A stretch of 64,000 nucleotides of DNA from Naegleria gruberi (Eukaryota), in the NCBI GenBank assembly GCA_000004985.1, contig GG738855.1; one strand, written 5' to 3'. Shown in pieces: positions 3,753 to 63,331 of this stretch. The notes under the pieces were generated by a model, which saw nothing but the letters and a program-made list of their open reading frames with translations, ran no database searches and was not told the DNA's origin. Numbering within the stretch: the stretch's first letter is position 1; each line of letters opens with the position of its first letter. The translations under genes and the position numbers were made by a program.

Positions 3753-6474
3753 CTAATTGAGAGCAAAACCTCCTCCTAAATGTACCCTAGTTCCTTCTCC
3801 AGGAGTAACTTTGTAAGATGGTTCTCCGGCCATTTCCTCACCTCCTAAAGTTTGTGATTGAGATCGTTCCTTTTCCAAGTAGAAATCCTTCTTTGTTTGT
3901 AAGAATTTCTTCTTGGTATCTTTGAGTTCTCTGTTAAGTCTTTCCTTTTCATACTCTTGTTGTTTATCCTTGTATTGTAAAAAGTTAAGTTCAGAAGCAA
4001 GAGATTGAATTTGAGAATTCTTCTTTCTCAAAGTCTCTTGATAAATATTAAGCTGTTCTGCAACTTCTGGACCTGGTTGTCTTGAAAGGATAGCCTTGAG
4101 CTTTTTGTTCATTTCCTCCTTTTCTTGAACAATTAAATCCTTTTCCATAACTTCCTCAGTTTTGGCAATCAATCTCTTTTGGAGCGTTTGGGTTTTAAGA
4201 ACAAGTTCATATTGTGTAGGATCGCTTCCTTCTAACTTTCTCCATCTGTGAACGTTCATTGGATTTTGAAGTTCTTCTGAGAGAGCTTTGACCTTGTTTC
4301 TTTCTTCGAGTAATTGTTTCTTCAACTCATGATTCTCTCTTTGGAATTCCTTAATCTTGTAAATGTGCTTCTTCAAGACTTGTAATTGTCTTGTGAGATC
4401 TTTGATTTTCAGTTTGAGAATCTTGATGTCACCCAACCGTTCTCTATATTGAATAGCTCCCTTGTCTAGTGTACTGTTTTGAAGTTGAATCTTTTCATAG
4501 AGGAGTGCAATTTCGTCGTTTCTTCTAATCAACTGAGTACCTAGAACATCTCTTTCACTAACAACAGCATCATAGTCCTTTTGTTGTTTTCTTCTTTCAT
4601 TATCAGCTTGCTTAATGATTTGAGTGAGCCTATAGTTTTCAGACTCGTGAGATTTGATGATTCTTTCCTGTTCCTTTTGCTTTTCTTCCAACAATTTAAT
4701 TTCTTCCTTCATCTTTTCCTTCTTCTTCAGGATTTGTTTAGCATTGTATGTTTCATCAACGAGAGCCTTTTCTCTACTGGTAATTTCATCCTTAAGTTGA
4801 GTAATTTGTTGTTCCATAATCTTGAACTGTTTCTTCATTTCTTCTGCCTCTTCGTGAGCCGCAATAAGAGCCTTACTCTTAGTGTTTCTTTCGCTTCTCA
4901 CTGATTCATATAGAGATTGTTGAGTCTTCAATTTTTCTTGAAGTTCAATAATCTTCTTTTGAAGCTCATTCAATTCAACAGTCTTGATTCTTACTTCTTC
5001 CAGAGCTTGTCTGTATTTCAGGTCAGAATCTGAAGCCTCCGAAGCATATCTTTCTCTTTCCTTCTCCAGTGTGTAGGTAAGTTGTCTGTACTTTTCTGTT
5101 TGCTTCCTTTCAGCAACAATTTCAGCTTTCAATACCTTTGAATTTCCTTCCAGAATTTTAATGTTATCCTGTTTCTTAGTCTTTTCCTTTTTCATGAGAA
5201 CCAAACTCTTACTGAGGTAATTTCTTTCTGCTTTGATTTTTTCTCCAGCTTCCAATTGTTGATCTTTTTGATTATTTAATTCCTCTATGACCTTGTTCAA
5301 ATGGATAATTTCTTGATTGAGAGATTCTTTAGATCTTTCAATTTCTTCCTTTTCATTTTCAACAATCTTCTTCTTTTGTTGGAGAGTTTGATAGCTTTGA
5401 TGCCATTGATTCTTTTCATCAATAACTTCTTTAACTTTTGTTTCCAACAACTTCTTTTCGAAATTCAATGTTTGATCGTTAGCCTTCAACCTAGAAACTT
5501 CAGCAATTAGTCCAACTCTTTCCTTTTCATCTGTATCAATGGTAGACTTGTATTGCTCTATTCTCTTTTGGAGAGAATTAATAGTTTGTTCCATATCCTT
5601 GATAACCTTTTCCGAATCTGTCACTCTTGTTTGTTCCTTCTTAATATTCTCATCTTTCTTTAAGAGTTCTTGAGCTTTAGCTGTGAGAAGTTGTTTCGAT
5701 TCTTTAAGTTCCTTTTCTGATTTTTCCTTTTGCTTGATTGTTTGATCTAACTTGTTCTTTGTTTCGTTGAGCTGTTCATTGATACTTTCAATAACAGTTA
5801 GCAATTTCTTCTTTTCTTGATTTACATCATTGATCTGTAAGAATAGTAGGTTATTAGAATTAATACTAGTACAATTTTTTGAAACTAACCTGAATTTGCA
5901 TATTCGATAATTCATTGTTAAGGGAAATTACTTGAGCATTTTTCATTTCCTTTTCTCTGGCAAGCTCCTTTTTTACCTTTTCCAACTCTGGTGCAGAGGC
6001 ATCTTGAACTGTATTACCGGTTCCTTGATTTGCAATTTTTGTCAGCTCCGAAATTTCTTTGGTAAGTTTTTGAACAGTTTCCTTAGCTTTGGCTTCTTTT
6101 TCATGTGATGCGTTTACTAGTTTCCATGCTTTATCAATTTCCTTTTTTAAAATTGCGATGGTGTTTTGGTCTTCCTTAGATAAATTAATTGCTGTTTGTA
6201 CCTTGATGGCATTTGCTACTATTTGTTGAGTAAGTTCCTCACATCTCTTCATAAGTCTCTTCTCATTTTCGTGACATCTCAATAAATTACGATGTAATTT
6301 TTCATATTCAATCCTAAAATTTTCCAAATGATCTTTTCCAGCCAATTCCATCAAAACTTCTTGAAAATCTCTTTCAAGTGTTTCAAAGGCTGTTTTGGTC
6401 AAACTAAGGACCATCTTTTCTTGATCATTCTCCTTTCCATCTCCTTGTTGGTTGGTCGAACCATCTGATGACAT
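3753..6474 (-). CDS. CFAP58: CFAP58 (CCDC147) homologue, cilia/flagella-associated coiled-coil protein; 2 exons (6474..5890, 5834..3753), about 888 aa
   Basis: The minus-strand ORFs 5866-6474 and 3753-5915 are joined by a 55-nt intron (about 5835-5889; donor GTTAGT, acceptor TTACAG) and are frame-consistent (585 + 2082 nt). The N-terminus FETLERDFQEVLMELAGKDHLENFRIEYEKLH matches, from memory, the CFAP58 N-terminal signature (FEDLEKDFQEVLTELSG..LEKFRVEYERLH). The C-terminus RQPGPEVAEQLNIYQ...GGGFALN matches RQPGPEAAEQLKLY...GGGF. The whole protein is coiled-coil. Confidence 0.75.
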
Positions 6475-6791
6475 TTTTTAAAACTATTTTAAAGTAGTTT
6501 TTGGCGCGAAAAATTACAGTTTTATCTGTTGGAGCTTCTACAACACTCAAGAAGAAGAATAACAACCAACACGAATAATACCACGATATGTAATTTTAAT
6601 AAGTCAGCCATGACATAATTTCATCATCAGCAAACATTTAATAATAATCAAGCCTCCACAAGAAACTGAATATAAAACCGTAGTGATAAAGAACAATAAC
6701 TTGAGTTACAAAGATACATGTTATGAATCAATACACCCAAAACACCAAATACTATTAATAAATTAATTGTACATTGTTAGGCGGCAAAAAA

Positions 6792-9553
6792 ATGAGTAAA
6801 TCAGAAGGCTCTGACACAATCCAAGTCTATTGTCGTATTAGACCAGTGAGTGAGAGTCATTGCCAATATTCAATAGAACAAACATTTGATAATGCAGTAC
6901 TACATTTTAAAAAACCAAGATCGGATGAAGCAGGATATATTAATAATACAATTGAAAATTATGAATATAAATACACCGGAATATTTGATCAACAAGTGGA
7001 TCAAGATGAAATATTTGATAGATGTGCTAAGAAATGTGTTCTTAGTGCTTTAGAAGGATATAACTCAACAATTTTTGCTTATGGTCAGTCTGGAAGTGGT
7101 AAAACTTATACAATGACTGGTGGAGATGGAAGCTATGAAAAAAGAGGTATCATTCCTAGAGCTATTTCACTTCTTTTTGAGGAATCGTCGAATGAAGGAA
7201 AACGAGATCGAGAATATACATTTTCAGTTTCATATATGGAAATTTATAAAGGATTTGGATATGATTTATTGAATGATAAAAGAGATTTAATGGATATTAA
7301 GGAATTACCGTAAGTTTAAAATGATGAGGAAATATATTAAAGAAATAATTTAGGAAAGTATCGGCTAGAATTGATACAAACGGAGCTGTTGTTTTCAAAA
7401 ATATTCAAACCTTTCCAACTAAAACAGAAGAGGATGCTTTGGATAAATTATTTATTGGTGATAAAAACAGAGTGTTGAGGTAAGAGATTTAATTTTAGTT
7501 TTGAATTTATTCATTCATTTTCAGTGAAACTATGCTCAATGAGTCCTCTACTCGTTCTCACTGTATATTTACTGTTAATATTGAATCAAAGGAACCTGGA
7601 TCATCAGTTGTAAAATCCTCAAAACTTCACATGGTAGATTTGGCCGGTAGCGAACGGCCTAGTAAGACAAATTCAACAGGCAAAACTCTGGAAGAAGCCA
7701 AGAGTATCAACTTGTCTCTGTATTTTTTGGAACGTTTTATTATGAGTATCAGTGAAGGTAATGACCACATTCCTTGGAGAGATTCATTAATCACCACTGT
7801 CCTTAAAGATAGTATTGGTGGTAATTGTAAAACTATTATGATTTCGACGATTAATCCTTCATATAGACACTTGTCGGAATCTGTTTCAACATGTAAATTT
7901 TCAATGAGAGTAGCTAGCATTAAACAAAATGCTGTCATTAACGAGAAAGTCGATCCATATGTTCAAATTAGAAAACTGAAAAAGAAAGTTGAGGAATTGG
8001 AGGAAGAACTGAAATATTATAGAGGTGAAGGGCAGAAAAGAGAAGCACTGGATGGAAACGAAAAAGCAATTATTAAGGAGAGAGTGGATGAATTTTTGGA
8101 TGATTTGGATAGAGACAGTTCTCTGAATTTGGGAGGAGACCATTTGAGAATTAGGGAGGCCTTCTTGGTTTTAAAATCCTATGTTTTGGATCTCAGGAAA
8201 AGGCCAAAGGAAGCTACAGCGTCGAAAGAGAAACCAGTACCTCAAAAAACGAAACCTCAGCCAATTCAGCAAGCCCCTCCACAACAACAAGTTGCTCTCT
8301 CAGAAGATATCCAAGAGAAGCTCAAAAACTTATCGGTTGCCATTGAGCTCAGAGATATTGAAATTGATATCCTTGTCTCCATGTTAAATAAGAAACAAAA
8401 GAACATGTCTGAAGTATCGATACAGACAGAAATTAGCCCATCGAGTCAAATTGTTACAACCCTTCCACCACCATCACCCAAGAGATCAATGCTTCATACT
8501 TTCACAAACGGAAATACATCTTCTATGGAATCAATAGCAAGTATGCATAGAAGTGTAGAACGAAAACCTATTCAAGATATTGTGACAAAAGAAGTTATTA
8601 AGGAAAGAATTCGAGAGAAGGAAAAATCCATTCTTTCCCAAACAGGTGATAATGCACCAAAATTCTCCAATGAAAAGATTGCCATCCTAGCCGATGCAAC
8701 TGGAATGAGGAGAAGAGCAGAAGCGTTCGAGTTATTTAGACAAAAATATAGAAATTACAATGTCATTGAAAAGAACAAGGAAGCTTTGGGAGAAAAGATT
8801 GCCTTTGCAAAGGAGATGGCTAGAGATATCAATGATAAGAGATCTGTCATTGAAGTGTTAAAGAACAGACTCATTCAACTAAGAACTGAAAGAGCTGCTC
8901 AAAATCTTGTAAATAAGAATGCTGAAACAGATGAAGAATTCCCAGAAGAAATTGAACTTAAAAAAGAGTTGTTAGCTGAAAAGGATAGACATCAAGATCA
9001 ATGTAATCAACTCAAGGAATTAAAGAAGGAAATTGAACACTTGAAGAGAGTATTGGAAATGAGCAGAGTGAGACTTCAACAAGATTTTGAAAATTGGTAC
9101 AAGACAACTAATCCATACCCAGAAGAAGATTCACCAGAAGAATCCATATCCTCTCAAGTTTCTGCAACAATACGAAGTAATATTTCACAACAGTATAGTA
9201 ATAGCAGTATTCCTGTTTCTACACTCAGTTTTGATTCCTCCTCTTCTCCAATATCTTCAACTCTTTCCACAACTACCTCCTCCTCTTCTAGGCCAACTGT
9301 AAAACAAGCTTGGGGAGTTGATAGTATTTCACCTAAAAACAATGTCAGCTCTAATTTAATGACACTCCGAAACAATAATCAACTACCACCACAGCAACAG
9401 CAACAAGGATTTAGTGAAGACAATCCATTCTTTAAGAAACTGAAAGAACATGTTGAACAGTCCTCAACTCTCTCAAGTGCAGCTGTTAATTCATCTGCCA
9501 ATACTAATTCCTCAAAGAGAGTTTCACTTCTCCAACAAGCTTACAAACTTTAA
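6792..9553 (+). CDS. kinesin-9B (KIF6-like) N-terminal motor kinesin; 3 exons (6792..7309, 7354..7479, 7525..9553)
   Basis: Start ATG at 6792 (aaaaaaATGagtaaa); the ORF-track start at 6774 is a TTG. The introns are 7310-7353 (GTAAGT..TAG) and 7480-7524 (GTAAGA..TCAG); splicing restores the motif GDKNRVLRETMLNESSTRSHCIF. The P-loop is FAYGQSGSGKTYTMTGG..GIIPRAI and switch II is LHMVDLAGSERPSKT. The family signature INLSLYFLERFIMSI is the kinesin-9 LSL..LE pattern; HIPWRDSLIT and the C-terminal RVRLQQDFENWY match, from memory, KIF6 (INLSLHYLEQVIIAL; QKEFEVWW). The C-terminal half is coiled-coil and S/Q-rich. Confidence 0.75.
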
Positions 9554-9560
9554 ATAAAAA

Positions 9561-10226
9561 ATGGAAAACACTCTGCAACCCAATTCCACCAATTCATTGG
9601 ATTTTAAAGTATTAAATAATAATGTGAAAGAGAGGAATAATTTATCAATTATTATACAAAGAATTATTAATTGGATATTATCTGTTTTAAAGGGAATTTT
9701 TAAATCGAATACTAGTAATAATACAAATAATAACATGTTCAAATCTCCTATTAGTAATAGTGGTGATGATGATAGTAATAATACTGCATCATCATCATTT
9801 GAATGTTCACAATTATCTATCTATTCCGATTTATTTAACCAACAAGTAAATATCGATGATAATCATCAAATACAATCCATCAAACCTAATCATATCAATC
9901 ACGATGATAAACCACAATTAATGAATCAAATAGATATTCAATTTAATAAGTGTATTTCTGGTACTGCTCTTCCATCCATGAATTCATCTAAATATGAAGC
10001 AATGAGAATTAAAAAACACTTTACCACCTCTACTAATTTACTTATCAAGGAATTTGATAAACCACACTTTGTAGGAAGTTTTTCCAACTCGACTGAATTG
10101 AAAACTATTAGAAAATCACCACTCTCTTTTATACCATTCCTCTCTGATTTATTTACTAGAAATGAATACATGATTGTTAAATCGGCAATTCTTGTATTTA
10201 TCACTGCAAGTTTAAAGAATGATTAA
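9561..10226 (+). CDS. hypothetical N/S-rich protein (uncertain gene)
   Basis: A 221-aa ATG ORF in an aaaaaATG context, starting only 7 nt after the kinesin stop. It is low complexity (N, S, T rich) with no recognisable domain. It could be a genuine small gene in a compact genome or a spurious ORF. Confidence 0.25.
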   Translation: MENTLQPNSTNSLDFKVLNNNVKERNNLSIIIQRIINWILSVLKGIFKSNTSNNTNNNMFKSPISNSGDDDSNNTASSSFECSQLSIYSDLFNQQVNIDDNHQIQSIKPNHINHDDKPQLMNQIDIQFNKCISGTALPSMNSSKYEAMRIKKHFTTSTNLLIKEFDKPHFVGSFSNSTELKTIRKSPLSFIPFLSDLFTRNEYMIVKSAILVFITASLKND

Positions 10227-12337: not shown

Positions 12338-14459
12338 TTATTTCATACTTTTTAATAGTTCATGAATGGAAGGAAGAGCAGATACTTGATTAGTTGATGG
12401 TGATGATTGATTCAGTGGGGAAGGTGGTGGTTGCATTCGCATCATCATGTTTGCTGAAGAAGTTGTGTTGGTTGGTGATTGTCTATTATTGTGAGATAAA
12501 GGAGTTGAATCACTAGAACTACTTCTTGAATAATTCTCCAAAGATGAGAAGGAAGTTGTAGAATAAATATTATTACTACCTGAATGAGCTAGTTGCATAG
12601 ATTGGTCAGCTGCACGTGGAATTTGGAATTGACCATTATTAACAGTTTGAATGTATGGATTGGATTTAAGTGAGGCAGGTGAGGATGAATTGAGTAGTGG
12701 TTGAGCTGGTGGTGTTGAAACATAACTAGATTGTGGTGAAACTTCACTACAATTCTGAGAGGAATAAGATGAAGATAAAAGAGATGAATCAACTCTTTTA
12801 ACTCTTTTAGCATTGTCAATATTGCTTTCATGTTCTCGTTTTCTATTAATCTTAGTATCACCAGCACTGGCATCATCAGAATTAGATTCCTCCTCTTCAA
12901 TGTCACTTCCACTCGATTTTTGAAGTAAATTTCTATCCATTGATAAATTTGCTGAACCAGATGGTCGCTTGATATTTTCAATTTCCGTATCAACTTTTTC
13001 CAATTGAGTTGTAAACTTTTTCTGAGATAGTGGGTTTGATGAATTGTTTTTCATATTTTCCAGAATCTTATCCCTCTTCATGTACAAACTCTTTAATTTT
13101 CTGTACGGCCATCTGTTGATAATTTAATAAACAACAATATAGTGTGAATTAAATAATTGATAGAATTAATTATTGTCATTATTCGAAATTAATACTAACC
13201 TTGGAATATTGAAATGTCTACATAATTTCTTCATTGATGTACTACTAATTCCGATTGCTTCACATGCTTGTTCTAATTTCCAATCAAAGTAAATAGCCAA
13301 TTCTTTAAATTTAATTGTTGTCATGGTAATGTGAGCTTGATGACCATTTGTTCTTTTAGCATTCGATGATGTTGCTTCATTATTCGATGAAACTGGACTA
13401 GATTTTCCACTAGGTGTTGAAGAAGGCACATTAAATGTTGATGATTGTGGTCTTTCACTTGGAGAGCTATTTCCATGCAATGATTGTGATGCAACAACAT
13501 GTTGTTGTGGTTGTGAGAAAGAATTAGATGGACTGGTCAAATTGGATGTTGGTACAGGAGTTGGAAGTGTGGCAAAGGGTCTATTAGATGGGGGTGATGT
13601 TGGAGAGGAATTATACATGTGATTGTTATTCAATGCATGGTTTCTTGTTGAATGCATGTGATGATTGAATACTTGCTGTTGGGCACTAGGATGCACATCA
13701 TAGTTATTGTACTCGTGATGATAATGATATTCGTTATTTACATGTTGTTGCTGCTGTCTGTCCAATCTGTTGGATGATCCAGTCACGGAGGATGACTTTT
13801 CGAAAAATTGAGCTGGTTGTCTGTGGTCGAAGGACATGGAAGAATTATTGGCCATTGTGTGGTGGTGGTCATACTGTTGGCCATGTGGTGGAGATAAAGA
13901 ATACATGTGACCGTGGTCTGGAGCATGGTGATGATGTGAATTCATTCCATACCCAGATTGATGAGAATGATGATGAGGAGGTTGAATTCTCTGATACGAC
14001 ATCATATTGTTATTATCTGCACTACTAATACTTGTCAACTGTGAAGGTGATGGTAGTGAGTCGAAGGTTTCTCTAAGGGGAGGCAGACTTTCTCTGATAG
14101 AAGCTACTGCTACTGTTGGTATTGGCACTGGTAGTAGGTGGTGGTGGTTGTGATGTTGTTATATTGTCTTGGTGTGCTATAACAATTGATAAAGTTGATG
14201 ATCTTCTTAATGATTCCAAGTTATCATAAGCTTGTTCTTTTTTCTTCATAAAGTTTTCATGAGGTTGGTGTTCTGTGCTTTCTATTTGTTGGTTGTGCGT
14301 TGTGTTCGCCGACAATAATCCCTCTGCTGATGTTGTTATTAAGGCAGCGGCTTGTGTTGTTGTTGTTGGTGAATTTTGCTCACTCACAGTGTTAGGAGTT
14401 GTCTTATTAGGATCGGTTGAGGGAAAAGATTTACTTATTGTTGGTACCTCAACGCTCAT
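12338..14459 (-). CDS. RWP-RK domain transcription factor; at least 2 exons (..13200 and 13112..12338), 5' structure unresolved
   Basis: Minus-strand ORFs 13166-14128 and 12338-13087 are joined by an 87-nt intron (about 13113-13199; GTTAGT..CAACAG). Splicing creates the motif ELAIYFDWKLEQACEAIGISSTSMKKLCRHFNIPRWPYRKLKSL, the RWP-RK consensus (..KLCR..GI.RWPyRK). The upstream region carries poly-H, poly-Q and N-rich tracts. A further ORF (14073-14459, start MSVEVPT) abuts in another frame near 14100-14130, so there is either an additional small intron or a frameshift. The M at 14128 in the ORF track is a GTG artefact. Confidence 0.6.
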
Positions 14460-18863: not shown

Positions 18864-20670
18864 ATGTCTGCCTCCCACTCTGATACCACCTTATTGTCTG
18901 TTCATACTGAAGGAGAAATGAGAAGACCTTCTCAACACTGGCTTTCTCAAACTACTGAAGTTGAATTTCCAGACAAGTCTATTCATGTTTTCCCATGCCC
19001 TGTAAAGTGTTTTGATATTGCTGTATTGTTGAAGAAACATATGCATATTAAAACAGATATCTATGCTTTGGAAATTAATAATTTAATTACTTCATTGAAT
19101 GAAGTTATTTCCTTTGCCCAAGTAAAGGTTGCTCCAGTTCTTAAAGATAGTGTTGAAGGTCACGCTATCCTCAGACGTAGTTTAGTCTTTTTAGTCGGAT
19201 TGGCAACTCACTTGGAATTCCCAGAACTTTCTTTATCTGTTGAACATTCATTGAGAAGTGGTTATATGATGTAAGTTTTTAATTGTTTATTTATACTAAT
19301 CTCTGAGAAATAGTTGTGTTGATGGAAAAGATGAACTTACTAATGAACAAGTTTCTAAAGTTCAACATAGAATGGAATTATTAGTATCAAAGGATTTACC
19401 AATTTTGACACGTTATGTATCATACGAAATGGCCATGGATTTCTTCCAAAATGTTGTCAAGAGGCCATATACTGCTTCACTTATTTCTGCAAACAATGAT
19501 CCTGCTGTTCCAATTGATTATTGTGACGGAGTTGACCAACAATATTTCGATTTGCATCACAGAACTCTTGTTGCTAGGACAAGCTTTATGAAGAGTACTT
19601 TTACTTTGGAAAAATTCAAGCAAGGATTCAAGCTTTCATTCCCTAATGAACCATATGATTTCGGTCTTGAATTCAATGACGAAACACTTTCTAATGTCTA
19701 TTCCGAATATAATAACTGGGGTAGAATTACAAATACTAGATGTGTTGGTGATTTGAATCAACACGTCAATGATAATACTATCAAATGGTTCATGGCTTTG
19801 AATCATGCTTTGCATGACCAAAAGATTGTTAAAATTGCTTTGGATATTTTCTCTAGAAAGGATAAGGTTAAACTTATCTTGGCTGCTGGCCCAAGTTCAT
19901 CAGGTAAAACTACATTTGCTAAGAAATTGAGTATTCAATTGGAAATTTTGGGTATTAAGCCAGTTACTATCTCAGTTGATGACTATTATAAGCCAAACAA
20001 GGAATGTCCACTTGATGAAAACGGTAATTATGATTTTGAAACCATTGATGCTTTGAGAATTGACTTGTTGAATGACCATCTCGAATCATTGATCAAGGGT
20101 GAAGAAGTCATGTCACCAATTTTCGATTTTAGAAAGGGTGAACCAAAGGCTGTTGGTCGTAAAATTAAATGTTTACCTGGTCAAGTCTTATTGATGGAAG
20201 GTATTCACTGTCTCAATGATAAATTGACTCCAAAGATTCCATCTGAAAACAAGTTCAAGATTTTCCTTGCTCCACTTACTCAATTGAATCTTGACGAAAT
20301 GAACTTTATCAGTAATAATACTACTAGATTGTTGAGAAGAATGGTCAGAGATTTCAACTTTAGAGGTCACTCTGTTACATCAACACTTGATATGTGGCCT
20401 GCTGTTCGTAAGGCTGAACACAAGAATGTTTTCCCATTCATGAAGAATGCAGATGTTGTTTTTAATACTTCACTTGATTACGAATATTCTGTACTCAAAG
20501 TTTATGCCAAGCCTCTTTTGAGTGCTGTCAGTCCACAAAGTCCACATTACAACTCTGCAAGAGAATTGTTGGCATTCTTACGTTATTTCCATGCCATTCC
20601 AGCTGGATCCATTCCTTCTGATTCATTGCTTCGTGAATTCATTGGAGATTCCTTCTTTGATTATGAATAA
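18864..20670 (+). CDS. uridine kinase/phosphoribulokinase-family P-loop kinase-like protein with a roughly 300-aa N-terminal extension; 2 exons (18864..19270, 19314..20670)
   Basis: The ORFs 18864-19274 and 19372-20670 are joined by a 43-nt intron (GTAAGT at 19271; acceptor AATAG|T at 19313), frame-checked. The Walker A motif is ILAAGPSSSGKTTFAKKL, followed by VSVDDYYK and LLMEGIHCLND, a pattern typical of the UK/PRK family. The long N-terminal domain is of unknown function. Confidence 0.55.
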
Positions 20671-37614: not shown

Positions 37615-37799
37615 AGAACCTTAATCAATTTACACAGTAAATTTCCATACAATAGAATGATATAATATCTCGTCACTCTTTATTTGTACCTCAACATGGT
37701 TACATTTTCTCAAAGAGAGTGGAAAACCGATTAGAACTGACCAGAAGATGTCGAGAAGTTTTCCCGCCAATTTAACAACAAAGCAAATAAAATACTAAA

Positions 37800-42441: not shown

Positions 42442-42791
42442 GTTGTTGGTATTTTTTAAAAAAATTCAATGTGTTTACAACATGAAGAATAAAAACCAAA
42501 TCATCAGGATTGAATCTTTTAAATAGAATTGGTAATAAACTAATTTATTCTTGTTAGATGATTAATACTTCAATTTTATGGTGGACATTGTTGGGTGCTG
42601 TACAGCCATCTGACACCAGCAGAGCTTGCTTCAACAAAAGCCGTGAAGAGAGAAGCAGCACAAATATCCCTGTCTTTTTAAAAATATTGTTGTGATGACC
42701 CAAAAATACTTCATTTGCCGCTTGTATTTGGCGCCTTTCGAAAACAACTACAAAAAAAAGAGTTTGAAAAGAGCAAGCCTTTGTATTCAAG

Positions 42792-49500: not shown

Positions 49501-49781
49501 CATTTGAAGCTGAAGAAGTTTGTTCTGTCTCCACACCAGACTCTGATAATATGGAAGATGTTGAAGCTGATTCCATTAGTGTGTCTAGTAACAAGGAAAA
49601 TGTTGATGACAATAACTTATCACCAATAGCAATCGTACCAACTGTAAAATCTATCAACATTCCAATGAAGAAAGTGAGCTCTGAACCTACTATTGTAAAG
49701 AAGCCAATTGTTAAAAAACCAACTATTACTAAGGTCTTGAAAAATAGTGCTCCAAATTTTGGGGTTTCTTCTTTCAGATAA
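46509..49781 (+). CDS. kinesin-5 (BimC/Eg5 family) bipolar mitotic kinesin; 2 exons (46509..46870, 46919..49781), about 1074 aa
   Basis: A 48-nt intron (GTAAGT at 46871; acceptor TTACAG at 46918) splits the P-loop IFAYGQTSSGKTYT|MEG. Motor motifs: VQVLLRCRPPNDKE, SSRSHCI, LNLVDLAGSENIGRSG, HIPYRESKLTRILQDSLGG. The stalk is a long coiled-coil, and the tail has a BimC-box-like TGTTPQKKKRK Cdk site. Kinesin-5 assignment is based on motor similarity to Eg5 ([20 protein letters not shown]..GIIPR) and the overall architecture. Confidence 0.8.
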
Positions 49782-49891: not shown

Positions 49892-52256
49892 TTATTGTCT
49901 CCTATTTACACTCTTCTTCACCTTGGAAGCTTTCTTATAGGCAAGATAATAGTTAAGACTCTCTGGGTCTTCTTGTTGAAGTCTTTCAATTTGGAGCTTT
50001 TCGAATTTTTCACCCTCATCCAACACATCTTCTTTTCCTTCCTGATCTAATCCTCTGTATCTGGAACTTCTAGATGATTGAGTTGGTCTATTGTCTTCTT
50101 CTTCCATGTACCTTTCGTCGTAATAGGCTTGGAAATCAGCTACAAGAGATTGTCTCAAAGTTTCTAAGGCCTTCTCAAGATAATCAATTTCGGATTTCAA
50201 CATCTTTCTTTCCTCAAAGGATTGCTTGTATGTTTCCTTTCTTTCCTTAATGCTTTGGAAGAATAGCATTTCTTCTTCATCCACAATATCATCTCCCACT
50301 TTATAATAATTATAGCGAACTTTAAAACAATTTCAACAACTTACAATGTGCATTTTCAACTTGTTTCTTATCAATCTTGGTCTTTAAATTATCAATATCT
50401 GCCTTGATATCATTAAGCCTTTGGGTTACATTCTTGAAGAGAGATTTCTTTTCCTTCAAGGAAGCAGAATTTTCCTTAATACTTTCACTTAATTGTTTTC
50501 CAACTGTGTGTTTAAACTCCTCAAAGGCATCGTTTCTGGGCATGATAATCTTGCTGGCAGTTTTTGACCTTTCAGTATCAGGAACAACAGCTGAGGTAGA
50601 TCTTTCTTCCCTTGCTGATAAAACTGTAGCTTTCTTTGTTTTCTTTTGGAAATCAACATTTGGTTTTGCCTCTCCAAATCCAAAACCAGTCTTACTTTCA
50701 ACTTCACCAACTCCATTTTCCTCATGAATTTTCTCTTCATGGATTTTTCCTGCAAAATTGGAAGCTGGAGCTGTTTGCTGTTTTTCTCTGTTAGAAGCTG
50801 AATGAATAGACTCTGGTTCTGTGAAAGAAGAGGCCTCTTTCAACAAGGTTTTGAATTGTACGAATATTTCCTTAATTCTTCTGATGTTTTTAATTTCCAA
50901 CTCTTCCACTTCTCCATTTACATAGCTTCTAATTTCCTTTCTCAATTCAACCTTTTGTTCCTCGGTGTATGGGTCATAATTTGCTTGATTGATTCCTCTC
51001 AATTGATCGTGCATGGATAGTTCTTGTTTCAGCTCTTTAATTTCCTTTTCATACTTTTTAATGAGAGCATCTGGGTTCATATGAACATTAATCATTGCTT
51101 CGTTGGAAACTCTCATCATTCTAGTGGCGAATTTAAGCGTACCAATTGTTTCTTCAATATGTTGTTCTTCTCCCCATACGTTCGCAATCATCAAAGTTTT
51201 GCAATTACCTCCTAAAGAATCCTTTAAGAAATAGGTAAGCTTGGATTGTCTGTAAGGGATGTGTTCTCTTGTTGGATTTCCCAATGCAATAACAACCTGT
51301 TCCAAAAACGAAAGTGACTTGTTGATGTATTTTGCTTCAGTGAGAACAAGTCCACTAGAGTGAGTTTTAGAAACTCTTTCACTACCAGCCAAGTCAACCA
51401 AATTCAACTTGGATTGAACGGTTTGACCTTCTGATTCAACTCTACTTCTACTTTCCAAATACATTGTAAAAACACAGTGAGATCTTGTTGAGGCCTTGTT
51501 CAATTGATGTTCACAGATAGCTCTGTTTGTTTCACCTTCAAAAAGCATTGATAAGGCTTCTTCCTCACTATTAACAATGTGACATGACAATCCTCTAACC
51601 ATGATAGTTCCCTTATTATCCTCCATAATAACCATATTGTCATCGTATGCATCATTTTTAGCTTTTGCCAATTGAGTGTCACTAATATCAGATAATAAAT
51701 CAAATAATTGTTCATTATAGATTTCCATATAAGAAACTCGTAATGTAAATGATTTTTCAGGATAATTTGACATTTCGGCAAACACTTGTTGAATTGCTCT
51801 TGGTATTAAACCTCTATTCTTATAATTGTTGGCAGCTCCAATCATGGTGTAGGTCTTACCTTTTTGATTGTTTCAATAATTAGAAATTATAAACTCAAAA
51901 TACAAACCTGAACCAGTTTGACCATAGGCCATCACAGTTCCATTATAACCTTCAAGGAATGATTTTGTAATATCATAACAACATTCATTAAATACTGTAT
52001 CTTGTGATACATTATGAAGTGTTTTATCAAATTTGAATGAATAATCTTCCTTCTTTGTTTCCAAATAATTTACATTTCCCGATTGTTTTCCAGATCTTCC
52101 CTTATTCTTAATCTCAATGCTCTTTTTTGATTCATCAAGAACAATCACATCCTGAGCAAAGAAAGCAGTCGGTCTAAATTATCATTGTATTAATAAATTT
52201 ATAAAATTCTTCACGTACCTCGTTCTGACACAAACTTGTACTGGGGTGTTGACCAT
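49892..52256 (-). CDS. kinesin-9A (KIF9/KLP1-like, flagellar central-pair kinesin); 4 exons (52256..52219, 52173..51908, 51859..50345, 50298..49892), about 741 aa
   Basis: Exon 1 encodes MVNTPVQVCVRTR; the introns are 45, 48 and 46 nt (GTACGT, GTTTGT, GTAAGT donors), frame-checked against ORFs 51873-52148, 50322-51845 and 49892-50299. Matches to KIF9 from memory: DYSFKFDKTLHNVSQDTVFNECCYDITKSFLEGYNGTVMAYGQTGSG|KTYTMIGAANNYKNRGLIPRAIQQVF (DWSFKLDGVLHDASQDLVYETVAKDVVSQALDGYNGTIMCYGQTGAGKTYTMMGATENYKHRGILPRALQQVF), RVSYMEIYNEQLFDLLS, NLVDLAGSERVSKT, INKSLSFLEQVVIALG (identical to the KIF9 INKSLSFLEQ signature) and HIPYRQSKLTYFLKDSLGGNC. Confidence 0.75.
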
Positions 52257-52389
52257 TTTGTTTTTTTAAAATTTAATTTACAGTTTTAAAATTTGGCGCC
52301 ATTTCAAATTGTTTCAAAAAAAGCAAATAAGTATTATTACATCGAAGAACAAATAGAAAGGTGCTTTGACAGATACAACATTGGTTTTA

Positions 52390-55155
52390 TTAGTTAAAGA
52401 AGAATGTAATGTCAGAGAATGTTTTTGGAGTTTGTGGAACTTTTTCAATTAGAGCATTTTCGATTGGAGAGTCAATGATGACCTTAAAGTCAGTATTAGT
52501 GAGATGCTTGGCAAAATATTTGAGAGATGGAATGGAGAGTGGAACATATCGTCTATCAGGGCAGTAGAGTACAAAATTAATGGAGGAGGAAGGTGAGGTA
52601 GCATCCTGTTCACTGTTTCCTGGTGCAGTTTGTTCTTCATTGTTGGTTGATGCTGGTGGTTCTTTCAAGTCCTTAAAGTCATCTTTAGAATCTTTGGTTT
52701 CCTTGGTTGGTTTTTGAGATGGTGAATCATTATTATTGGAAAGTGATTGATTTGGTGGAGATGAGAGAATATATCTCAAATTTTGTCTAATATTTGTCAA
52801 GACCTTTTTCATTTCGTCGTCTACACTCGAATTGAAGAACATGATTTTAGCCAAATTGAGGAAATCACCAATCTTGACGAAAATTGAAGGATCTGCTTTG
52901 TGTATCACATCTGAATCAGAAGGAATGTCATAGTACTTTTCCAAGAATGCTTGTTGCTTTGATCTATTTTGCTTGGTTATTTTAATTTCCAAAATCCAAT
53001 TAAGAATTGTCTTTTTGATTTGACTAGCTTTTTCTGATACTCCTTTGTATTCCTTAGTTTGTAAACATGAATCATGACCAGACATGATATCCAAAAATTG
53101 AGAAATGTGGCTTTCCTTTGATCTGACGTTATTGTTGATGAGAACCTGTTGTAACTTTTTTCTAATCTTGTTAATTCTCAAGTAGGAACTGACAATATAG
53201 GCACTGGCAAGCTCTGTAGAACTAATCTTGTTTCCTGAGGCATTAACATTGGCACTGCTCTTGGAAGCATAATCGAAAATTTGTGTCAAGAAGAAGTGAA
53301 TATAGGCAAGTTTGTACTGATGTTCGAATGGAGCTTCTTTCAAGTGCAAAATCAACTTTTCATGAATCTTGTCAAGAATATTTTCCCATATTTGAATCTT
53401 CTTTTCCAAACTGTATTCTTTAGTTCTGATAGGAATATCCAAGTTTGGATTCTTTCTTGGAGTGGTTGGTGATGAACCAGAACCGTTGCCATTGATTACT
53501 ACAAGACCAGCTCCTTGTGAAAGACTAGCTTGACGCATTTCTTCAAAGTTTTTCATGTCTTGTTGTAATTTGGCACGTTGTTTCATTTTGTTAATGGAAT
53601 CAGAGAAAATCTTCTTCATTCCAACAGTTGGAAATTCAGAAATTGATTGTTCTGAAACATCTGAAGTAGTGTCAAAACTCTTTCTGAACATGGAGGTTCC
53701 ACCAGTTGGAGTTTGAGGGGAAGGAGAAAGATAAGAACTCGTTGATGGACTTCCATACAAATTATTTCCAATACCATTTCCCATAGGAAGACCATTTTCA
53801 TAACTTGAAGGAGCAGAAGAGGAAAGTATGTCATTTGAACGACCAGCTGAATCATAGAGGATACTGTTTTGTTGTGAATTTTCGTCACTAACGCTTGAAC
53901 GTAATGAATCCATACTACCCATTCTTAAATGAGAACCAGCAACAGGTGACATGGTTGTGTGCACTCTTAATTCAAGTCTGTCATCATTGACTGGTGAGCT
54001 AGAGTAAGGAGAAGAACCCAAATAGGAATATCTGGTTGATGGTGAGGAGGAAATCATTTGCTTTCCCAATTCATGAATGGTTGGTGAAGAAGACAGCGCA
54101 GGAGAAGAACCAACACCCAAATAAACAGGTGGTGATTGAGAACTTGAACCAGCTCTAGAACGTCCACTTCCAGTAATCAACACGCTTTGACTACTAGGTC
54201 TGGTTTGAATTGCTATAGCAGTTGTAAGTTGTTGGACAGATGAATTCTCATTTTCTTCATCATCTGATGAAGAGGATTCTCTATTTTCCTTTGATTCATT
54301 ATTTGTATTATGAGCGAGTATTGCACTACTGATATCAGAAATATTATTTGAGAGTGCTTGAGTCGAGTGATCGTTAGCATTTGGTTCGGAAGAGGTACTA
54401 TTCATTGATGCATTATTACCACTACCATTGTTATCATTGCTAGAATCTGTCGATCCCTCAATTCTACCACTACTAGCACTATTATCACCAGAAGAAGGAG
54501 AAGTGGAAGAGTTTGCAGTATTAGTATTGACACCTTTCAATGCACCTCCTCCATATTTACCAAATTCCTGTTGCTCTTGATGATATTGTGAAACCTTACC
54601 ATAATAGACAACAGTTGCACTTCTTCTTTTCATCTTATCCAAATTGACAATTGATAAATCCACACCATGATAATGAGAAAGAACAGTTTCAACAACCTTA
54701 TCCAAATAATTATTTCTTTGAGTGACTGGATCTTCTACTGTCAAAATACTCAACAAATTATCCAATGATTTGTTTCCCTTCAATCTAATCATATAAAGTA
54801 ATTGAATGATGGATCTCAAATAGAGAAACTTTAATCTTTTTGTCTTCATGTGATTAAAAATCATATAAGTTAACTTGATGTATTCCATTTCATCACCATC
54901 ATTATAAGATCCATCATCACCATTCATCTTATCTAGTGCATGTTTAACTAACATGGATAAATATTGTGGTTGTGTCTGTAGTAAGTAGAATACAAATCCT
55001 ATATGTTGTAGTAAACGTTCTCGCTTTTCCCTTCTTAGGTTTTTAACAGTATCATCTTGTATTGAATTGGAATTAGAAACTTCCATAATGTTGGAACTTT
55101 CACTCTCCGAGAAACTCTCAAAGAGAGGATAAGAATTACTATTATTTTGTCCCAT
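52390..55155 (-). CDS. large hypothetical protein (921 aa) with predicted N-myristoylation site and long S/N-rich disordered middle
   Basis: Continuous minus ORF starting MGQNNSNS (Gly2, Ser6). The N-terminal region is structured (LLQHIGFVFYLLQTQPQYLSMLV). The central 300 aa is S/N/G-rich and low complexity. The C-terminal roughly 350 aa is structured (FEHQYKLAYIHFFLTQIFDY...). No family is assigned. Confidence 0.45.
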   Translation of the reverse strand: MGQNNSNSYPLFESFSESESSNIMEVSNSNSIQDDTVKNLRREKRERLLQHIGFVFYLLQTQPQYLSMLVKHALDKMNGDDGSYNDGDEMEYIKLTYMIFNHMKTKRLKFLYLRSIIQLLYMIRLKGNKSLDNLLSILTVEDPVTQRNNYLDKVVETVLSHYHGVDLSIVNLDKMKRRSATVVYYGKVSQYHQEQQEFGKYGGGALKGVNTNTANSSTSPSSGDNSASSGRIEGSTDSSNDNNGSGNNASMNSTSSEPNANDHSTQALSNNISDISSAILAHNTNNESKENRESSSSDDEENENSSVQQLTTAIAIQTRPSSQSVLITGSGRSRAGSSSQSPPVYLGVGSSPALSSSPTIHELGKQMISSSPSTRYSYLGSSPYSSSPVNDDRLELRVHTTMSPVAGSHLRMGSMDSLRSSVSDENSQQNSILYDSAGRSNDILSSSAPSSYENGLPMGNGIGNNLYGSPSTSSYLSPSPQTPTGGTSMFRKSFDTTSDVSEQSISEFPTVGMKKIFSDSINKMKQRAKLQQDMKNFEEMRQASLSQGAGLVVINGNGSGSSPTTPRKNPNLDIPIRTKEYSLEKKIQIWENILDKIHEKLILHLKEAPFEHQYKLAYIHFFLTQIFDYASKSSANVNASGNKISSTELASAYIVSSYLRINKIRKKLQQVLINNNVRSKESHISQFLDIMSGHDSCLQTKEYKGVSEKASQIKKTILNWILEIKITKQNRSKQQAFLEKYYDIPSDSDVIHKADPSIFVKIGDFLNLAKIMFFNSSVDDEMKKVLTNIRQNLRYILSSPPNQSLSNNNDSPSQKPTKETKDSKDDFKDLKEPPASTNNEEQTAPGNSEQDATSPSSSINFVLYCPDRRYVPLSIPSLKYFAKHLTNTDFKVIIDSPIENALIEKVPQTPKTFSDITFFFN

Positions 55156-55525: not shown

Positions 55526-57147
55526 TTATTGGTGAGTGATGATATTCAAATCACTCAAAATATATGAACTGTTATCTGTCATTGAATGCCTAAAATGTTT
55601 GCTGACCTCTTCTTTGCTTTCTTCAACTACAATAACAAAGAAAGTAGTGGTCATACTGAGAATATTTCTAATCTCAAGAGAGCCACAAGCTTCCCATAAA
55701 TTGTAAACAGGTTCAACTTCTGAGGGTAACTTTGGTGCAATATCTTGAACAGATGAGCTAGCTTGACCAACATTAATTTTTCTCCATTTGGTTGGGCGAA
55801 CAACAGGGACTGGTTTCAAATCTCTTGGAAGTTCGATAGCCTTTAATTTTGGAATAGCAGCAGAGGGATACAGTGAATAAATATTATTCCATTTCGAAAC
55901 AATAAAGAATTCATCAGTGGAATTAACTATTCTTCTTACATGACTTATTTCTAAATCAATAAAGTTGGACTTCTTTGAAACAAATAATCTTTTGTCCTCA
56001 TCCCTTACCACAAGCATACTGTTGTCTATTGACCTTATTTCACATATTGGAAAAGGTAAATCTAACAAAAAGCATTCTCTTTGTACTGTATCGATATTAT
56101 CTGTACTTTCATTATTAAAGATCAAATTATTAACTCTCAATGTATGAGAGGAATTATCATTCAACAAATCTGTAATTATATTCAATCTTTCTCTGAATGT
56201 TGAGTATACTTTACCAGATTTGGTAACTAGAAAATTGCCAACAAATAATTGTTGTACGGAAACTATTGTTTCATTAGGTATTTCTATTGAGCAAATATAT
56301 GGAGAATCCATCTCATCTGCCTCAATAAAATCAACTTGTACATCATCAAAATCAATCATTCTCTTTCGTAAAAAGTAGGTATCTTTTCCACAAATGTACC
56401 ACTTTCCATTTTGTGTTCCAAACACAGAACTGTGAGAATTGGTTTTAATGGTTGTTATATACTCATTCTTTGCTATGAAATCAACTTGATTCCAATCCTC
56501 AACGAAATCGCATCTATTGAGTAATCCCAATTCATTAAATGTATTGGTACCTCTAAATACTGTGAGTATAAGTCAATTAAATTTTTAACATACCTTGCAT
56601 ATACCTTACCATTCCTCAATTGAATAAAGTACACTCTTCTATTGGTGTCACAACTAAAGTTGATAAACACCACATCTTCTTTCGTCAAATTTCTTGTTCC
56701 ACTTTGTTGATTTGCATAAAATACTGGAATAACTGGCAATGATATCTCAGTTATCTTTGTGGTATACTCACTAATGTTATTGACATTTGAGAATTTACCG
56801 ACATGGTATAAAACAAGAACTTTCGTTTCTTCCTCTTCGAAAAGAACCACCAACTCACCAAACACACTATTGATGTATACTATCTGACTCAAATCCGTCA
56901 ATTTCTTAATACCAAACAATGACCGTTTCTCTTTTAATTCAGGAGCAGTTGTTAGGAATAATTTTGCCTGATTTACATCTTCACAACTTCCAAACTTTGA
57001 TGGATTCATAGGAGTATAAGGAGAGAAGGATAGAAAATGTCTATTTCCACTCCCTTGAAATATTGGGAAATTGGAATGTTCCTTAAGGATTCTATTAGAT
57101 TCTTCCTTAGAGTTACGATCCATTTCGTCAATAATGATTGGCTCCAT
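55526..57147 (-). CDS. hypothetical protein, 2 exons (57147..56610, 56559..55526), about 524 aa
   Basis: The ORF-track start at 57171 is a TTG; the first ATG encodes MEPIIIDEMDR at 57147. A 50-nt intron (donor G|GTAAGG at about 56609; acceptor CTCACAG at about 56560) joins the ORFs in frame (..FIQLRN|VFRGTNTFNELGLLNRCDF..). No recognisable domain. Confidence 0.4.
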
Positions 57148-58708: not shown

Positions 58709-58771
58709 ATGTTGCTGCTCTGATTGGCGCACAAATCAATACTAACTTGTTGAATATCAATTTAATACTGT

Positions 58772-61132: not shown

Positions 61133-61150
61133 TTATAGAACTTGGTTTGT

Positions 61151-63331
61151 CTACTCTTGAATCAGCCGTAAAAACTTCTTTTTCAATTCTACCTTGTCTA
61201 TCATTGGTTTCTTCTCTGATTGAACTGATTCTTGGTTTGTGTTTTGTTGAGTATGTTGAGAACCAGTGGTGGTTCCTATTTCGGATGCAGTATCACTTGA
61301 CTTTTCAGATAATTGTTGAATTTTCTTTTCTTCTCCTTCTTTTTCTCTGATTTTCCATCTTTCTTTAAAGTACAGAACCTTTTCATGTTCGCGATTGAAG
61401 AGGTTTCTAACAAGTTTTTCTTCATCTGGAAGAGGTCTTATTAAATTCTTAGGCACCTCAACAACAGATAGAGATCCATTCTGAGTACCAACTGCAATAA
61501 ATTGGAATGAGAGTTTTCCTACTCCCGTTCCAGATCTAAACTTGAGCTCTGTAAGAGGTACATTTTGTTGGGAAATTGAAAAGTGGGAAACCATACTACA
61601 ATCATGAGACTTATCCAAGAAGTCCCAAACTTCAATGAAACCATCACTTCGACCCAGTAGCAAAACACCTGGACGAGTAGGACTCCAACTTCCACATGAG
61701 TACGAAACATTGAACTTGAAACAACTAGTCCAAATTGGATCAGGGCAGCCAACTTTCCAAATTTTGCAAGTGGCTTTGCCAATAGTTAGCAAAATATCGT
61801 CAAAGAATGGACTTCTTGAAATTGAATGGGTCAATCCCAAATGGCCATTCGATCTTCCATAAATTCCGTTAGCAATATTCACAGAATTGAATGTTGTTTC
61901 TGCGTTAGCTCCCTCACCTTCAACCGGTGACCAATCTGCTGTGATAAATTCTCCTTCGGTTGTTGTACAGCACAATTGATATGGATTCTTCATGCTTACA
62001 GATAAGGCAAATGTTGGGAGTTCAGAAGTAAGATCCAACTGAAGAATTGGCATGACAGCAAATGGTATCCAAGCATCTTTCATTCTTTCACTCTTCTTGA
62101 CTGATAATCTTTTCTTTTCCTTTCTAATATCCCAAAGTATTATTTGAGAATCCATTCCTAGTGTTAAAAATTGATAACATTCTTCTTCATTGATTGCAGC
62201 CATTGTTCCATTATTTCTAACCTCTTTTCCTTTTGTAATCCATTGTATTCCTGTAACTGCACTCTTGTGACTCATTTCAGTCAATGAAATCTGAGAGTAC
62301 TCAAGAGTTGGTATCTGAGGCTTTTCAATTTCATCGCCCTTCATATCAATTATAATTTTTTCAAATTCCTTTTCTTCCTTTTCAATGTTCCAAATGAGTA
62401 TTTGGCCATTTATCATACCTCCTGCTAAAATATAGGGCATTGCAGGGTTGAATTGAATCGCACTAACATCATTGGGGGCATTAAGGATATAACTTGGATA
62501 GGTTGGATCTTGGAATGACCATATATACACTTGAGAAGATGTGGGTTTACCCAAATCCAATACCCTAGAGCTAAAATCTCTAATATCTATTGTACTTAAT
62601 GCAATAACGGCTCTATTATTTGGTTGCCAATCAAGGGAAGCAATTTTTCTGTATTTTGACATTGCGTGAGGGAATGATTGTATTTCTATGAATTGTGATT
62701 CCGATTTTGTTCCAATGAAAGAATCATCAATAACCAAATCAACAAAATCATCCTTGAAAATATCTATTGTTGTATTTTGATCTAATGCTTCAAAAAGCAA
62801 TTCGGAAACATTTTTCAAGAATTCTTCCACTGCAGGACTATCCATACTTTCCTGAATATCTGTTTGAGAGACTGATTCAGAAATGTTTACCTGAGAAAAA
62901 TGGTTAACCTTTCTGAACCACTCTGTTTGTGCTGTTGATTCAACTAGAGATTCTCCACATTGTACTCCATAATCCCTTTCCAATCGTTGATCTGCTGGTT
63001 GATATCTTGGGTCCTTAACAGGAGGGAAAAACCTGTATGAATCATTAGTATCCTCTTCAATATTTTGTATTTCCCTTCCGAAATGTTTAAATTTTCTAGT
63101 AAATCTCATCTTAGTCAGAGGTCTCAAAAGCTGGACTTTTTCTGCCATTATTTCCGCAGCAGTGTCTCTTTCCTCTTTTTGCTTTCCCGAATAAACTGAT
63201 GTAACTGTTGGTGGACGAGAGCCATTTTCCTCATTCTTTCCTTCGTTCCAATCTTCATTGTTTTCCTCCACTGGTTCAACGTCCATGTCATCATCGACAT
63301 GCATTGGCTCAATTAGATTATTGCTGCTCAT
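61151..63331 (-). CDS. WD40-repeat protein of the dynein intermediate chain family (axonemal-type IC-like)
   Basis: Continuous 726-aa minus ORF with ATG at 63329-63331. The roughly 180-aa N-terminal region is non-coiled; WD repeats follow, including the dynein-IC-typical pattern SQVYIWSFQDPTYPSYILNAPNDVSAIQFNPAMPYILAGGMINGQILIWNI (compare DNAI2 [51 protein letters not shown]). Other blocks are LTLGMDSQIILWDI and DGFIEVWDF. Which subtype (IC78/IC140/IC138/IFT-dynein) it belongs to cannot be decided by eye. Confidence 0.55.
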   Translation of the reverse strand: MSSNNLIEPMHVDDDMDVEPVEENNEDWNEGKNEENGSRPPTVTSVYSGKQKEERDTAAEIMAEKVQLLRPLTKMRFTRKFKHFGREIQNIEEDTNDSYRFFPPVKDPRYQPADQRLERDYGVQCGESLVESTAQTEWFRKVNHFSQVNISESVSQTDIQESMDSPAVEEFLKNVSELLFEALDQNTTIDIFKDDFVDLVIDDSFIGTKSESQFIEIQSFPHAMSKYRKIASLDWQPNNRAVIALSTIDIRDFSSRVLDLGKPTSSQVYIWSFQDPTYPSYILNAPNDVSAIQFNPAMPYILAGGMINGQILIWNIEKEEKEFEKIIIDMKGDEIEKPQIPTLEYSQISLTEMSHKSAVTGIQWITKGKEVRNNGTMAAINEEECYQFLTLGMDSQIILWDIRKEKKRLSVKKSERMKDAWIPFAVMPILQLDLTSELPTFALSVSMKNPYQLCCTTTEGEFITADWSPVEGEGANAETTFNSVNIANGIYGRSNGHLGLTHSISRSPFFDDILLTIGKATCKIWKVGCPDPIWTSCFKFNVSYSCGSWSPTRPGVLLLGRSDGFIEVWDFLDKSHDCSMVSHFSISQQNVPLTELKFRSGTGVGKLSFQFIAVGTQNGSLSVVEVPKNLIRPLPDEEKLVRNLFNREHEKVLYFKERWKIREKEGEEKKIQQLSEKSSDTASEIGTTTGSQHTQQNTNQESVQSEKKPMIDKVELKKKFLRLIQE

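Follow-up and report, generated by a model that had tools for sequence, protein, structure and literature searches.

We have analyzed a 64-kb stretch of Naegleria gruberi DNA (the window, part of a 613,270-bp scaffold) that carries five genes for cilium proteins: CFAP58, kinesin-9B, ARMC9, kinesin-9A and the dynein intermediate chain IC140. Each of the five is preceded by a short GC-rich element matching TTTSSCGC, the long-established E2F consensus. The window is gene-dense, with a G+C content of 31–35%. The original prediction, made from the sequence of the window, put the number of genes at about 35, which is about right (we count approximately 34 from open reading frames (ORFs) and Pfam), and it named five cilium genes; all five calls, with their positions, are borne out by Pfam, by PDB matches and by named relatives. 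Approximately 29 unrelated genes stand between and around them. The prediction's term 'amoebozoan-like' is taxonomically wrong, N. gruberi being a heterolobosean amoeboflagellate, and its statement that the organism builds a motile cilium with a central pair is correct, yet already known for Naegleria: both the 9+2 flagella of N. gruberi and the induction of its flagellar genes during differentiation have long been on record.

CFAP58 (also FAP58/FAP189 or CCDC147) is a coiled-coil protein of the axonemal doublet surface. Its gene lies on the minus strand at 3753–6474, in two ORF pieces (3753–5915 and 5866–6474) joined across a short intron. The product matches Pfam CFAP58_CC (PF21771) at 8.6e-59 (199.5 bits; cut-off, 27) and PDB chain 8glv_LP nearly over its full length (1.3e-132, residues 34–700), as well as 9fqr_It and 8j07_j1; it has 291 relatives at E ≤ 1e-30, many of them so named. 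Head-to-head with CFAP58, the two start codons 318 bp apart, is the kinesin-9B gene (6793–9553, plus strand), which encodes a kinesin motor and a Pfam KIF9 domain (1.8e-33). The top PDB matches of kinesin-9B, KIF9 and KLP1, cover the motor region only, and its 9B (KIF6-like) label is assigned by exclusion, the other paralogue being clearly KIF9/KLP1-like. That paralogue, kinesin-9A (49892–52256, minus strand, at least four exons), matches the PDB KIF9 chain 9ijj_c at 1.7e-113 over query residues 1–418, that is, beyond the motor, and the Chlamydomonas central-apparatus kinesin 7n61_0X at 3e-87; it too has the Pfam KIF9 domain. A published phylogeny lists exactly two N. gruberi kinesin-9 genes, jgi_47171 and jgi_64648 (bioRxiv 10.1101/2024.01.08.573270). 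Since jgi_64648 adjoins kinesin-5 and is thus kinesin-9A, the gene at 6793–9553 is by elimination jgi_47171, and both kinesin-9 genes of the genome lie within the window. Tandem duplication as the origin of their closeness was considered and rejected: the motors are only ~42% identical, and the genes are on opposite strands, ~40 kb apart, with separate orthologues elsewhere.

ARMC9 is a protein of the ciliary tip and basal body. The gene (NAEGRDRAFT_64644; 42793–45002, plus strand) has multiple exons encoding LisH, CTLH and ARM regions. Pfam CTLH_Armc9 is matched at 3.2e-34 (118.6 bits) and ARMC9_ARM at 1.3e-34 (119.2 bits), a LisH-like N-terminal exon is present in the sequence, and 569 relatives at E ≤ 1e-40 bear the name ARMC9. 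The gene originally described as a 'dynein-IC-like WD40' protein (NAEGRDRAFT_57343; 61151–63331, minus strand, 100% identical to the N. gruberi protein) is, judged by its structural matches, IC140/DNAI3 (WDR63), the intermediate chain of inner-arm dynein I1/f. Its best matches are IC140 itself (8glv_AG, 7.2e-72), DNAI3 (8j07_k1, 2.6e-69) and WDR63 (9fqr_Hw, 1.3e-67), with outer-arm IC2 reaching only ~1e-28 and IC138/DNAI4 ~1e-5.

Two further genes bear on the argument. The third kinesin of the window, with a kinesin motor and Microtub_bind (PF13931), is kinesin-5 (46509–49781, plus strand); it is convergent with kinesin-9A, the stop codons lying 110 bp apart. It is jgi_64647, the sole kinesin-5 of N. 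gruberi (bioRxiv 10.1101/2024.01.08.573270), and is published as mitosis-specific (Kennard et al. 2024/2025), so we did not count it as ciliary. The second is NAEGRDRAFT_64642 (37800–39648, plus strand), an orphan gene with one intron near 38495–38551 encoding a mostly helical protein of ~599 amino acids. No Pfam family exceeds the curated threshold (37800–38504 gives none, 38497–39648 a sub-threshold DUF6279), and the AlphaFold model, at a predicted local distance difference test (pLDDT) score of 32, is unusable for a fold search. The protein has only five relatives, restricted to its lineage, among 1.84 billion representatives, one being the N. lovaniensis orthologue (located by tblastn), and it goes unmentioned in the Naegleria kinetochore preprint.

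GC-rich boxes similar to E2F sites were first seen in the upstream regions, and the whole window was then scanned with the pre-defined TTTSSCGC. The scan returns nine matches against 0.83 expected, and the maximum in 100 dinucleotide-preserving shuffles is three. All nine are within 220 bp upstream of an ATG, mostly at 5–80 bp, and they mark exactly the five cilium genes, kinesin-5 and the orphan gene. The starts of the 23 other genes tabulated have no TTTSSCGC, save that of eIF3c, which shares the intergenic region of ARMC9. In the CFAP58/kinesin-9B intergenic region, the palindromic TTTGGCGCGAAA (6500–6511) is at −26 to −37 of CFAP58, and kinesin-9B has an element of its own at −5 to −12 (6781–6788, minus strand; GCGGCAAA as read on the plus strand). 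The orphan gene and IC140 have the same word, TTTCCCGCCAA, at about −30 to −40 (37760–37770, plus strand; TTTSSCGC at −33 to −40) and −25 to −35 (63356–63366, minus strand; TTTSSCGC at −28 to −35), respectively. Two elements, TTTGCCGC and TTTGGCGCC (42714–42735), precede ARMC9 at −58 to −79, with TTTSSCGC at −59 to −79; TTTGGCGCC reads GGCGCCAA on the minus strand, and this is the region shared with the divergent eIF3c. Kinesin-9A has GGCGCCAAA (in gene orientation) at −36 to −44 (52292–52300, minus strand; TTTSSCGC at −36 to −43), flanked by TTTGAA repeats and AAAACTGTAA, with two TTTGAA copies just upstream of the GGCGCC box. Farthest from its gene, at about −210 to −220, is the kinesin-5 element TTTGCCGCCAA (46290–46300, plus strand), which is followed by AA TTTGAA.

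Three further counts speak for the specificity of the word. The extended form SSCGCCAA has six matches in the window versus 0.5 expected, one per motif-bearing promoter region and five of the six in gene orientation. As a composition-matched control we took all 32 possible TTT+S5 octamers, and the four that are E2F-type make up nine of the 15 TTT+S5 occurrences. An unbiased k-mer screen of the six microtubule-gene promoters against 23 others puts CGCCAA on top, found in 6/6 versus 2/23, although the upstream regions of CFAP58 and kinesin-9B overlap, so the k-mer counts are not fully independent.

Other words occur beside the element. AAAACTGTAA or TTACAGTTTT, with a Myb-like AACTG core, accompanies the E2F-type site of three promoters at a distance of 5–9 bp: at 6512–6523 between CFAP58 and kinesin-9B, at 52276–52287 upstream of kinesin-9A, and at ~9975–9990 of the Willaertia CFAP58 contig (L003). 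In the window this word is at chance frequency (six matches), and what is notable is the pairing only. In the kinesin-5 promoter, 46290–46311 reads TTTGCCGCC AAAA TTTGAA, an arrangement similar to the CDE/CHR tandem in the G2/M genes of animals.

The element recurs in orthologous promoters of related species. At IC140, TCCCGCC(C)AA is found within 35 bp of the ATG in four of four genomes; outside N. gruberi the positions are −22 in N. lovaniensis, −12 in Willaertia and −27 in a Naegleria-like metagenomic species, where it is the sole relaxed-motif match on a 5.5-kb contig (L008). CFAP58 has GGCGCC-type sites, TTTGGCGCC at −34 in a metagenomic species (L004) and ATGGCGCC at −36 in Willaertia. 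N. lovaniensis has TTCGCGCCAA at about −145 of ARMC9 and CCCGCCAAAA at −55 of the orphan-gene orthologue. The relaxed core SSCGCC(A) is thus kept in three further species for IC140, two for CFAP58 and one each for ARMC9 and the orphan gene, in surroundings that by inspection have no obvious similarity between orthologous promoters. In Willaertia the element is also found in the stretch that separates the gene for DNA polymerase epsilon subunit B from its divergent neighbor, and upstream of a cyclin-domain gene; these are typical E2F targets.

Is the grouping of the five genes itself exceptional? The original prediction had set it above the density expected of a flagellated eukaryote, taken as 2–4% of genes. 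Nominally this is so: the binomial probability of at least five ciliary genes among 34 is 5.5e-4 at a 2% baseline, rising to 1.1e-2 at 4%. For the genome as a whole it probably is not. The N. gruberi genome has 15,798 genes, and in 2,000 simulated random orders of that many genes, a run of 34 consecutive genes with at least five ciliary ones appears somewhere with a probability of 0.61 at an assumed ciliary fraction of 2%, 0.99 at 3% and 1.0 at 4%. On these assumed fractions of 2–4%, the window is nominally enriched and not exceptional genome-wide, even before allowing for other gene categories that might have been noticed.

Gene order in related genomes is mostly broken. In N. lovaniensis, ARMC9 still has eIF3c as its head-to-head partner, with the orphan gene on the upstream side and a small gene (unk45091) on the downstream side; beyond that small gene, unrelated genes replace kinesin-5 and kinesin-9A. 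IC140 of N. lovaniensis is followed by a membrane protein and TBP, the same as in the window, and then by UQCC (a cytochrome-c chaperone) and DFRP, which in N. gruberi lie 27 kb from TBP; the order is rearranged. The synteny blocks between the two species are just two to four genes long. A DDE_3 transposase gene (19192–20298 of the N. lovaniensis contig L001) sits at the synteny breakpoint after DFRP. In Willaertia magna the surroundings of IC140 are entirely different, with none of the window neighbors, and in Acrasis kona two CFAP58 paralogues and ARMC9 are likewise without any of them. One Acrasis CFAP58 paralogue is tail-to-tail with FBF1 (10001–14408 of contig L009), which makes another heterolobosean pair of cilium genes, FBF1 being a ciliary transition-fibre protein.

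CFAP58 and kinesin-9B are neighbors in Willaertia as well. There the two genes are in tandem, a kinesin-9B orthologue (59% identity) following CFAP58 after 65 bp, and every gene flanking the pair differs between Willaertia and N. gruberi. A Naegleria-like metagenomic contig with a 76% identical CFAP58 has no kinesin upstream of it. Overall, Willaertia keeps one of the four testable adjacencies, this one, which is suggestive only. The pair may be a real local exception to a chance grouping, and may benefit from shared regulatory DNA, Willaertia having a single site for both genes. As for the two kinesin-9 genes, the paralogues have identifiers near each other in Trypanosoma brucei (Tb927.7.6290/Tb927.7.7260), Giardia (KAE8304137/KAE8304215) and N. 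fowleri (g2002/g2093, 91 gene numbers apart); going by these gene identifiers, there are hints of a repeated or retained loose 9A/9B linkage in excavates.

A functional cluster would be expected to have a conserved arrangement, and contiguity or shared regulatory DNA. The arrangement is not conserved (it is looser in N. fowleri, besides being broken in N. lovaniensis), the five genes are not contiguous, and CFAP58 and kinesin-9B are the one pair with a common intergenic region. Of the two explanations that the original prediction had left side by side, chance or a co-regulated chromosomal neighborhood, the simulation and the broken gene order thus favor chance, or an eroding historical linkage, over positional co-regulation. 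Our preferred reading, which we regard as probably correct, is that the 64-kb grouping is a chance or historical juxtaposition and not a functional domain, with co-expression of the genes most likely achieved in trans through the proximal E2F-type elements. The genes would then form a dispersed regulon, in which a sequence-specific factor binds the TTTSSCGC/SSCGCCAA element at the promoter of each cilium gene. The most plausible such factor would be a protein of the E2F/DP family, because the element matches TTTSSCGC. The identities of the genes, the excess and placement of the motif, its conservation across species and the lack of a conserved gene order are observed; a role of the element in transcription, its binding by E2F/DP and a joint induction of the genes are inferred. 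Since the mitotic kinesin-5 and the orphan gene share the element, it appears to mark microtubule-structure genes and not flagellar genes alone, and it would do so in a cell without interphase microtubules. This shared use fits a published observation: levels of some central-pair genes go up both during mitosis and during differentiation. The orphan gene is, by its promoter, predicted to be co-regulated with the cilium genes; with the element conserved in N. lovaniensis, NAEGRDRAFT_64642 is a candidate for a gene newly linked to flagella or mitosis. A broader proposal, which we make tentatively and with some doubt, is that axonemal and ciliary structural genes of Naegleria and Willaertia are switched on via E2F/DP-type elements common to mitotic and S-phase genes.

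Several observations weigh against these views. For the grouping, the chance estimate is built on an assumed ciliary fraction of 2–4% and not on a gene map of N. gruberi, and at a strict fraction of 1.2% the simulated genome-wide probability is only 0.10. Some linkage is also retained within the genus: N. lovaniensis has ARMC9 and IC140 on one contig, ~50 kb or 23 locus tags apart, and the kinesin-5/kinesin-9A adjacency is found in N. fowleri as well (g2001, g2002). For the element, the association with microtubule-structure genes (Fisher P = 1.5e-5) is partly post hoc, as the motif had been noticed in the same promoters beforehand. The orthologous promoters of N. lovaniensis and Willaertia lack the exact TTTSSCGC, with the relaxed core alone conserved; in Willaertia no separate site precedes kinesin-9B; and neither the Acrasis genes examined nor a more distant CFAP58 locus (L010) has the element. 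Finally, in the literature consulted the E2F, DP and Rb families are reported for Excavata at the level of the group only.

The strongest rival to an E2F/DP regulon accepts the element and denies its identity: it would be a generic core-promoter or start element of one Naegleria promoter class, or would be bound by some unrelated factor, and the association with cilium genes seen in the window would be a coincidence. In favor of this, the sample is just seven promoters; the element is very close to the likely transcription start; besides the non-ciliary kinesin-5 and orphan gene, a cyclin-domain gene and the polymerase epsilon B gene of Willaertia carry it; and it is missing from Acrasis and from the more distant CFAP58. 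We nonetheless consider this rival rather unlikely. The match is to a pre-defined E2F consensus and includes the palindrome TTTGGCGCGAAA; a generic start element sits poorly with the lack of TTTSSCGC elsewhere in the window, outside the region that eIF3c shares with ARMC9; the element persists at orthologous promoters amid sequence without obvious similarity; and the non-ciliary carriers are classic cell-cycle targets.

A second alternative concerns the grouping and overlaps with the reading we prefer instead of contradicting it. Here an older linkage group of the Naegleria lineage would be eroding, and the window would be what is left of it, functionally neutral and dispersed by frequent rearrangement, with only tight pairs surviving. 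The short synteny blocks shared with N. lovaniensis, one of them ending beside the DDE transposase, are what such erosion would leave; so are the kinesin-5/kinesin-9A adjacency common to N. fowleri, the CFAP58/kinesin-9B pair common to Willaertia with one gene inverted, and the position near IC140 in N. lovaniensis of the orthologue of the gene at 52390. We think a remnant an unlikely account on the whole.

Least probable, and in our judgment very doubtful, is a selected chromosomal neighborhood with a shared chromatin domain that would open during the amoeba-to-flagellate switch. The nominal enrichment (5/34 genes), the location of both kinesin-9 genes of the genome at ~40 kb from each other (45 kb from one start codon to the other), the 318-bp divergent promoter of CFAP58 and kinesin-9B with its adjacency kept in Willaertia, and the joint presence of ARMC9 and IC140 on one N. 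lovaniensis contig all speak for it. Against it, a random order of genes would already be expected to produce such a density at some place in the genome; neither the genus nor the wider set of heterolobosean genomes examined keeps the gene order; in N. fowleri, 91 gene numbers separate the two kinesin-9 genes; the cilium genes stand among unrelated housekeeping genes and a kinesin specific to mitosis; and with its own proximal element at every cilium gene, position is unnecessary for co-regulation.

The interspersed housekeeping genes include eIF3c, TBP, a DEAD-box helicase and eEFSec. Exact matches of window ORFs to N. gruberi proteins were obtained for NAEGRDRAFT_64636, NAEGRDRAFT_64642 and NAEGRDRAFT_64644, for eIF3c and for a Ras-family GTPase. 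The gene for eEFSec, the selenocysteine-specific elongation factor (33211–34895, minus strand), is split by introns over at least three ORFs, and its presence implies selenoprotein synthesis in Naegleria. The window also encodes a T4 Rnl2-type RNA ligase with its C-terminal domain (1263–2420, plus strand) and a transcription factor that has an RWP-RK domain and long stretches of low complexity (13166–14128, minus strand). An assembly gap (a run of N, 36392–36903) falls inside a gene with an acyltransferase in its C-terminal half; the N- and C-terminal halves flanking the gap may be one gene or two. Three proteins were left out of the cilium count, and PDB searches with each of them gave no match: an FWWh-domain protein of the FAM227 family (PF14922; 26108–28343, plus strand, searched with 26451–28343), and the products of 52390–55155 and 55526–56530. 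The promoter of the FAM227-like gene has no E2F-type element; animal FAM227 genes are described in the literature as loosely co-expressed with cilia-associated modules. The 921-amino acid protein of 52390–55155 (minus strand) has no Pfam match either. Its first 200 residues are 86% identical to the N. lovaniensis protein, compared with 74% for IC140, and the N. lovaniensis orthologue sits on the other side of IC140.

The clustering is of little weight: it is probably due to chance, and the genes and the 9+2 flagellum were already known. The kinesin-9 and kinesin-5 genes of the window are in published N. gruberi inventories (Fritz-Laylin et al. 2010; Fritz-Laylin & Cande 2010; Kennard et al. 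2024/2025). As far as the accessible portions of the N. gruberi flagellar and microtubule inventories go, they report neither chromosomal clustering nor a promoter motif. A limited literature search likewise returned no report of clustering of Naegleria flagellar genes or of a promoter motif for them, and no account of cilium genes with E2F sites from any unicellular organism. How cilium genes are transcribed coordinately outside animals is an open question, and the E2F-type element, a conserved site of which is found at five of the five cilium genes examined, offers a directly testable hypothesis; coming from a handful of genes, it is a candidate new lead. If the lead holds, the one-hour transformation from amoeba to flagellate would re-use the cell-cycle transcription machinery, and NAEGRDRAFT_64642, singled out by its promoter, would be a new gene for microtubule structures. 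The site shared with a mitotic kinesin would, if confirmed, hint at an old link of the cell cycle to the de novo assembly of basal bodies and flagella.

Four known systems invite comparison. The CFAP58/kinesin-9B pair resembles the bidirectional-promoter pairs of eukaryotes, being divergent at a distance of 318 bp, with a palindromic element in between and an adjacency kept in Willaertia. It is unlike them in that the orientation differs between species and N. gruberi kinesin-9B has its own site, so that sharing is not required. Cell-cycle E2F and CDE/CHR (DREAM) promoters likewise have TTTSSCGC near the transcription start, and the GCCGCC AAAA TTTGAA of kinesin-5 resembles a CDE followed by a CHR, the tandem promoter pattern of animal G2/M genes. 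The Naegleria targets, however, include post-mitotic flagellar structural genes, and the CHR-like spacing is found at one gene only.

The RFX/X-box (FOXJ1) regulon of animals and choanoflagellates, whose X-box is a 14-bp inverted repeat, offers a parallel in organization: there, too, a short proximal element co-regulates dispersed cilium genes without clustering. Motif and factor family are different, and RFX is absent from Naegleria. According to a 2025 review Naegleria lacks RFX, FOXJ1 and XAP5 alike, and other factors must regulate its cilium genes; E2F/DP, if it does bind the element, would be a candidate cilium regulator for this lineage.

The closest parallel would be the E2F4/5–Multicilin program. 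In vertebrate multiciliated cells, E2F4/5–DP acts with Multicilin/GEMC1 to turn on the genes with which such a cell makes its many basal bodies and cilia, a use of E2F outside the cell cycle (PMC12183034). Vertebrate E2F4/5 mainly drives centriole-amplification genes along with FOXJ1 and RFX, which in turn activate the axonemal genes, whereas in Naegleria the putative E2F-type element lies directly at structural axoneme genes. What the two systems would have in common is E2F-type sites at cilium genes, in Naegleria in a cell that assembles its basal bodies de novo and has the same element at a mitotic gene.

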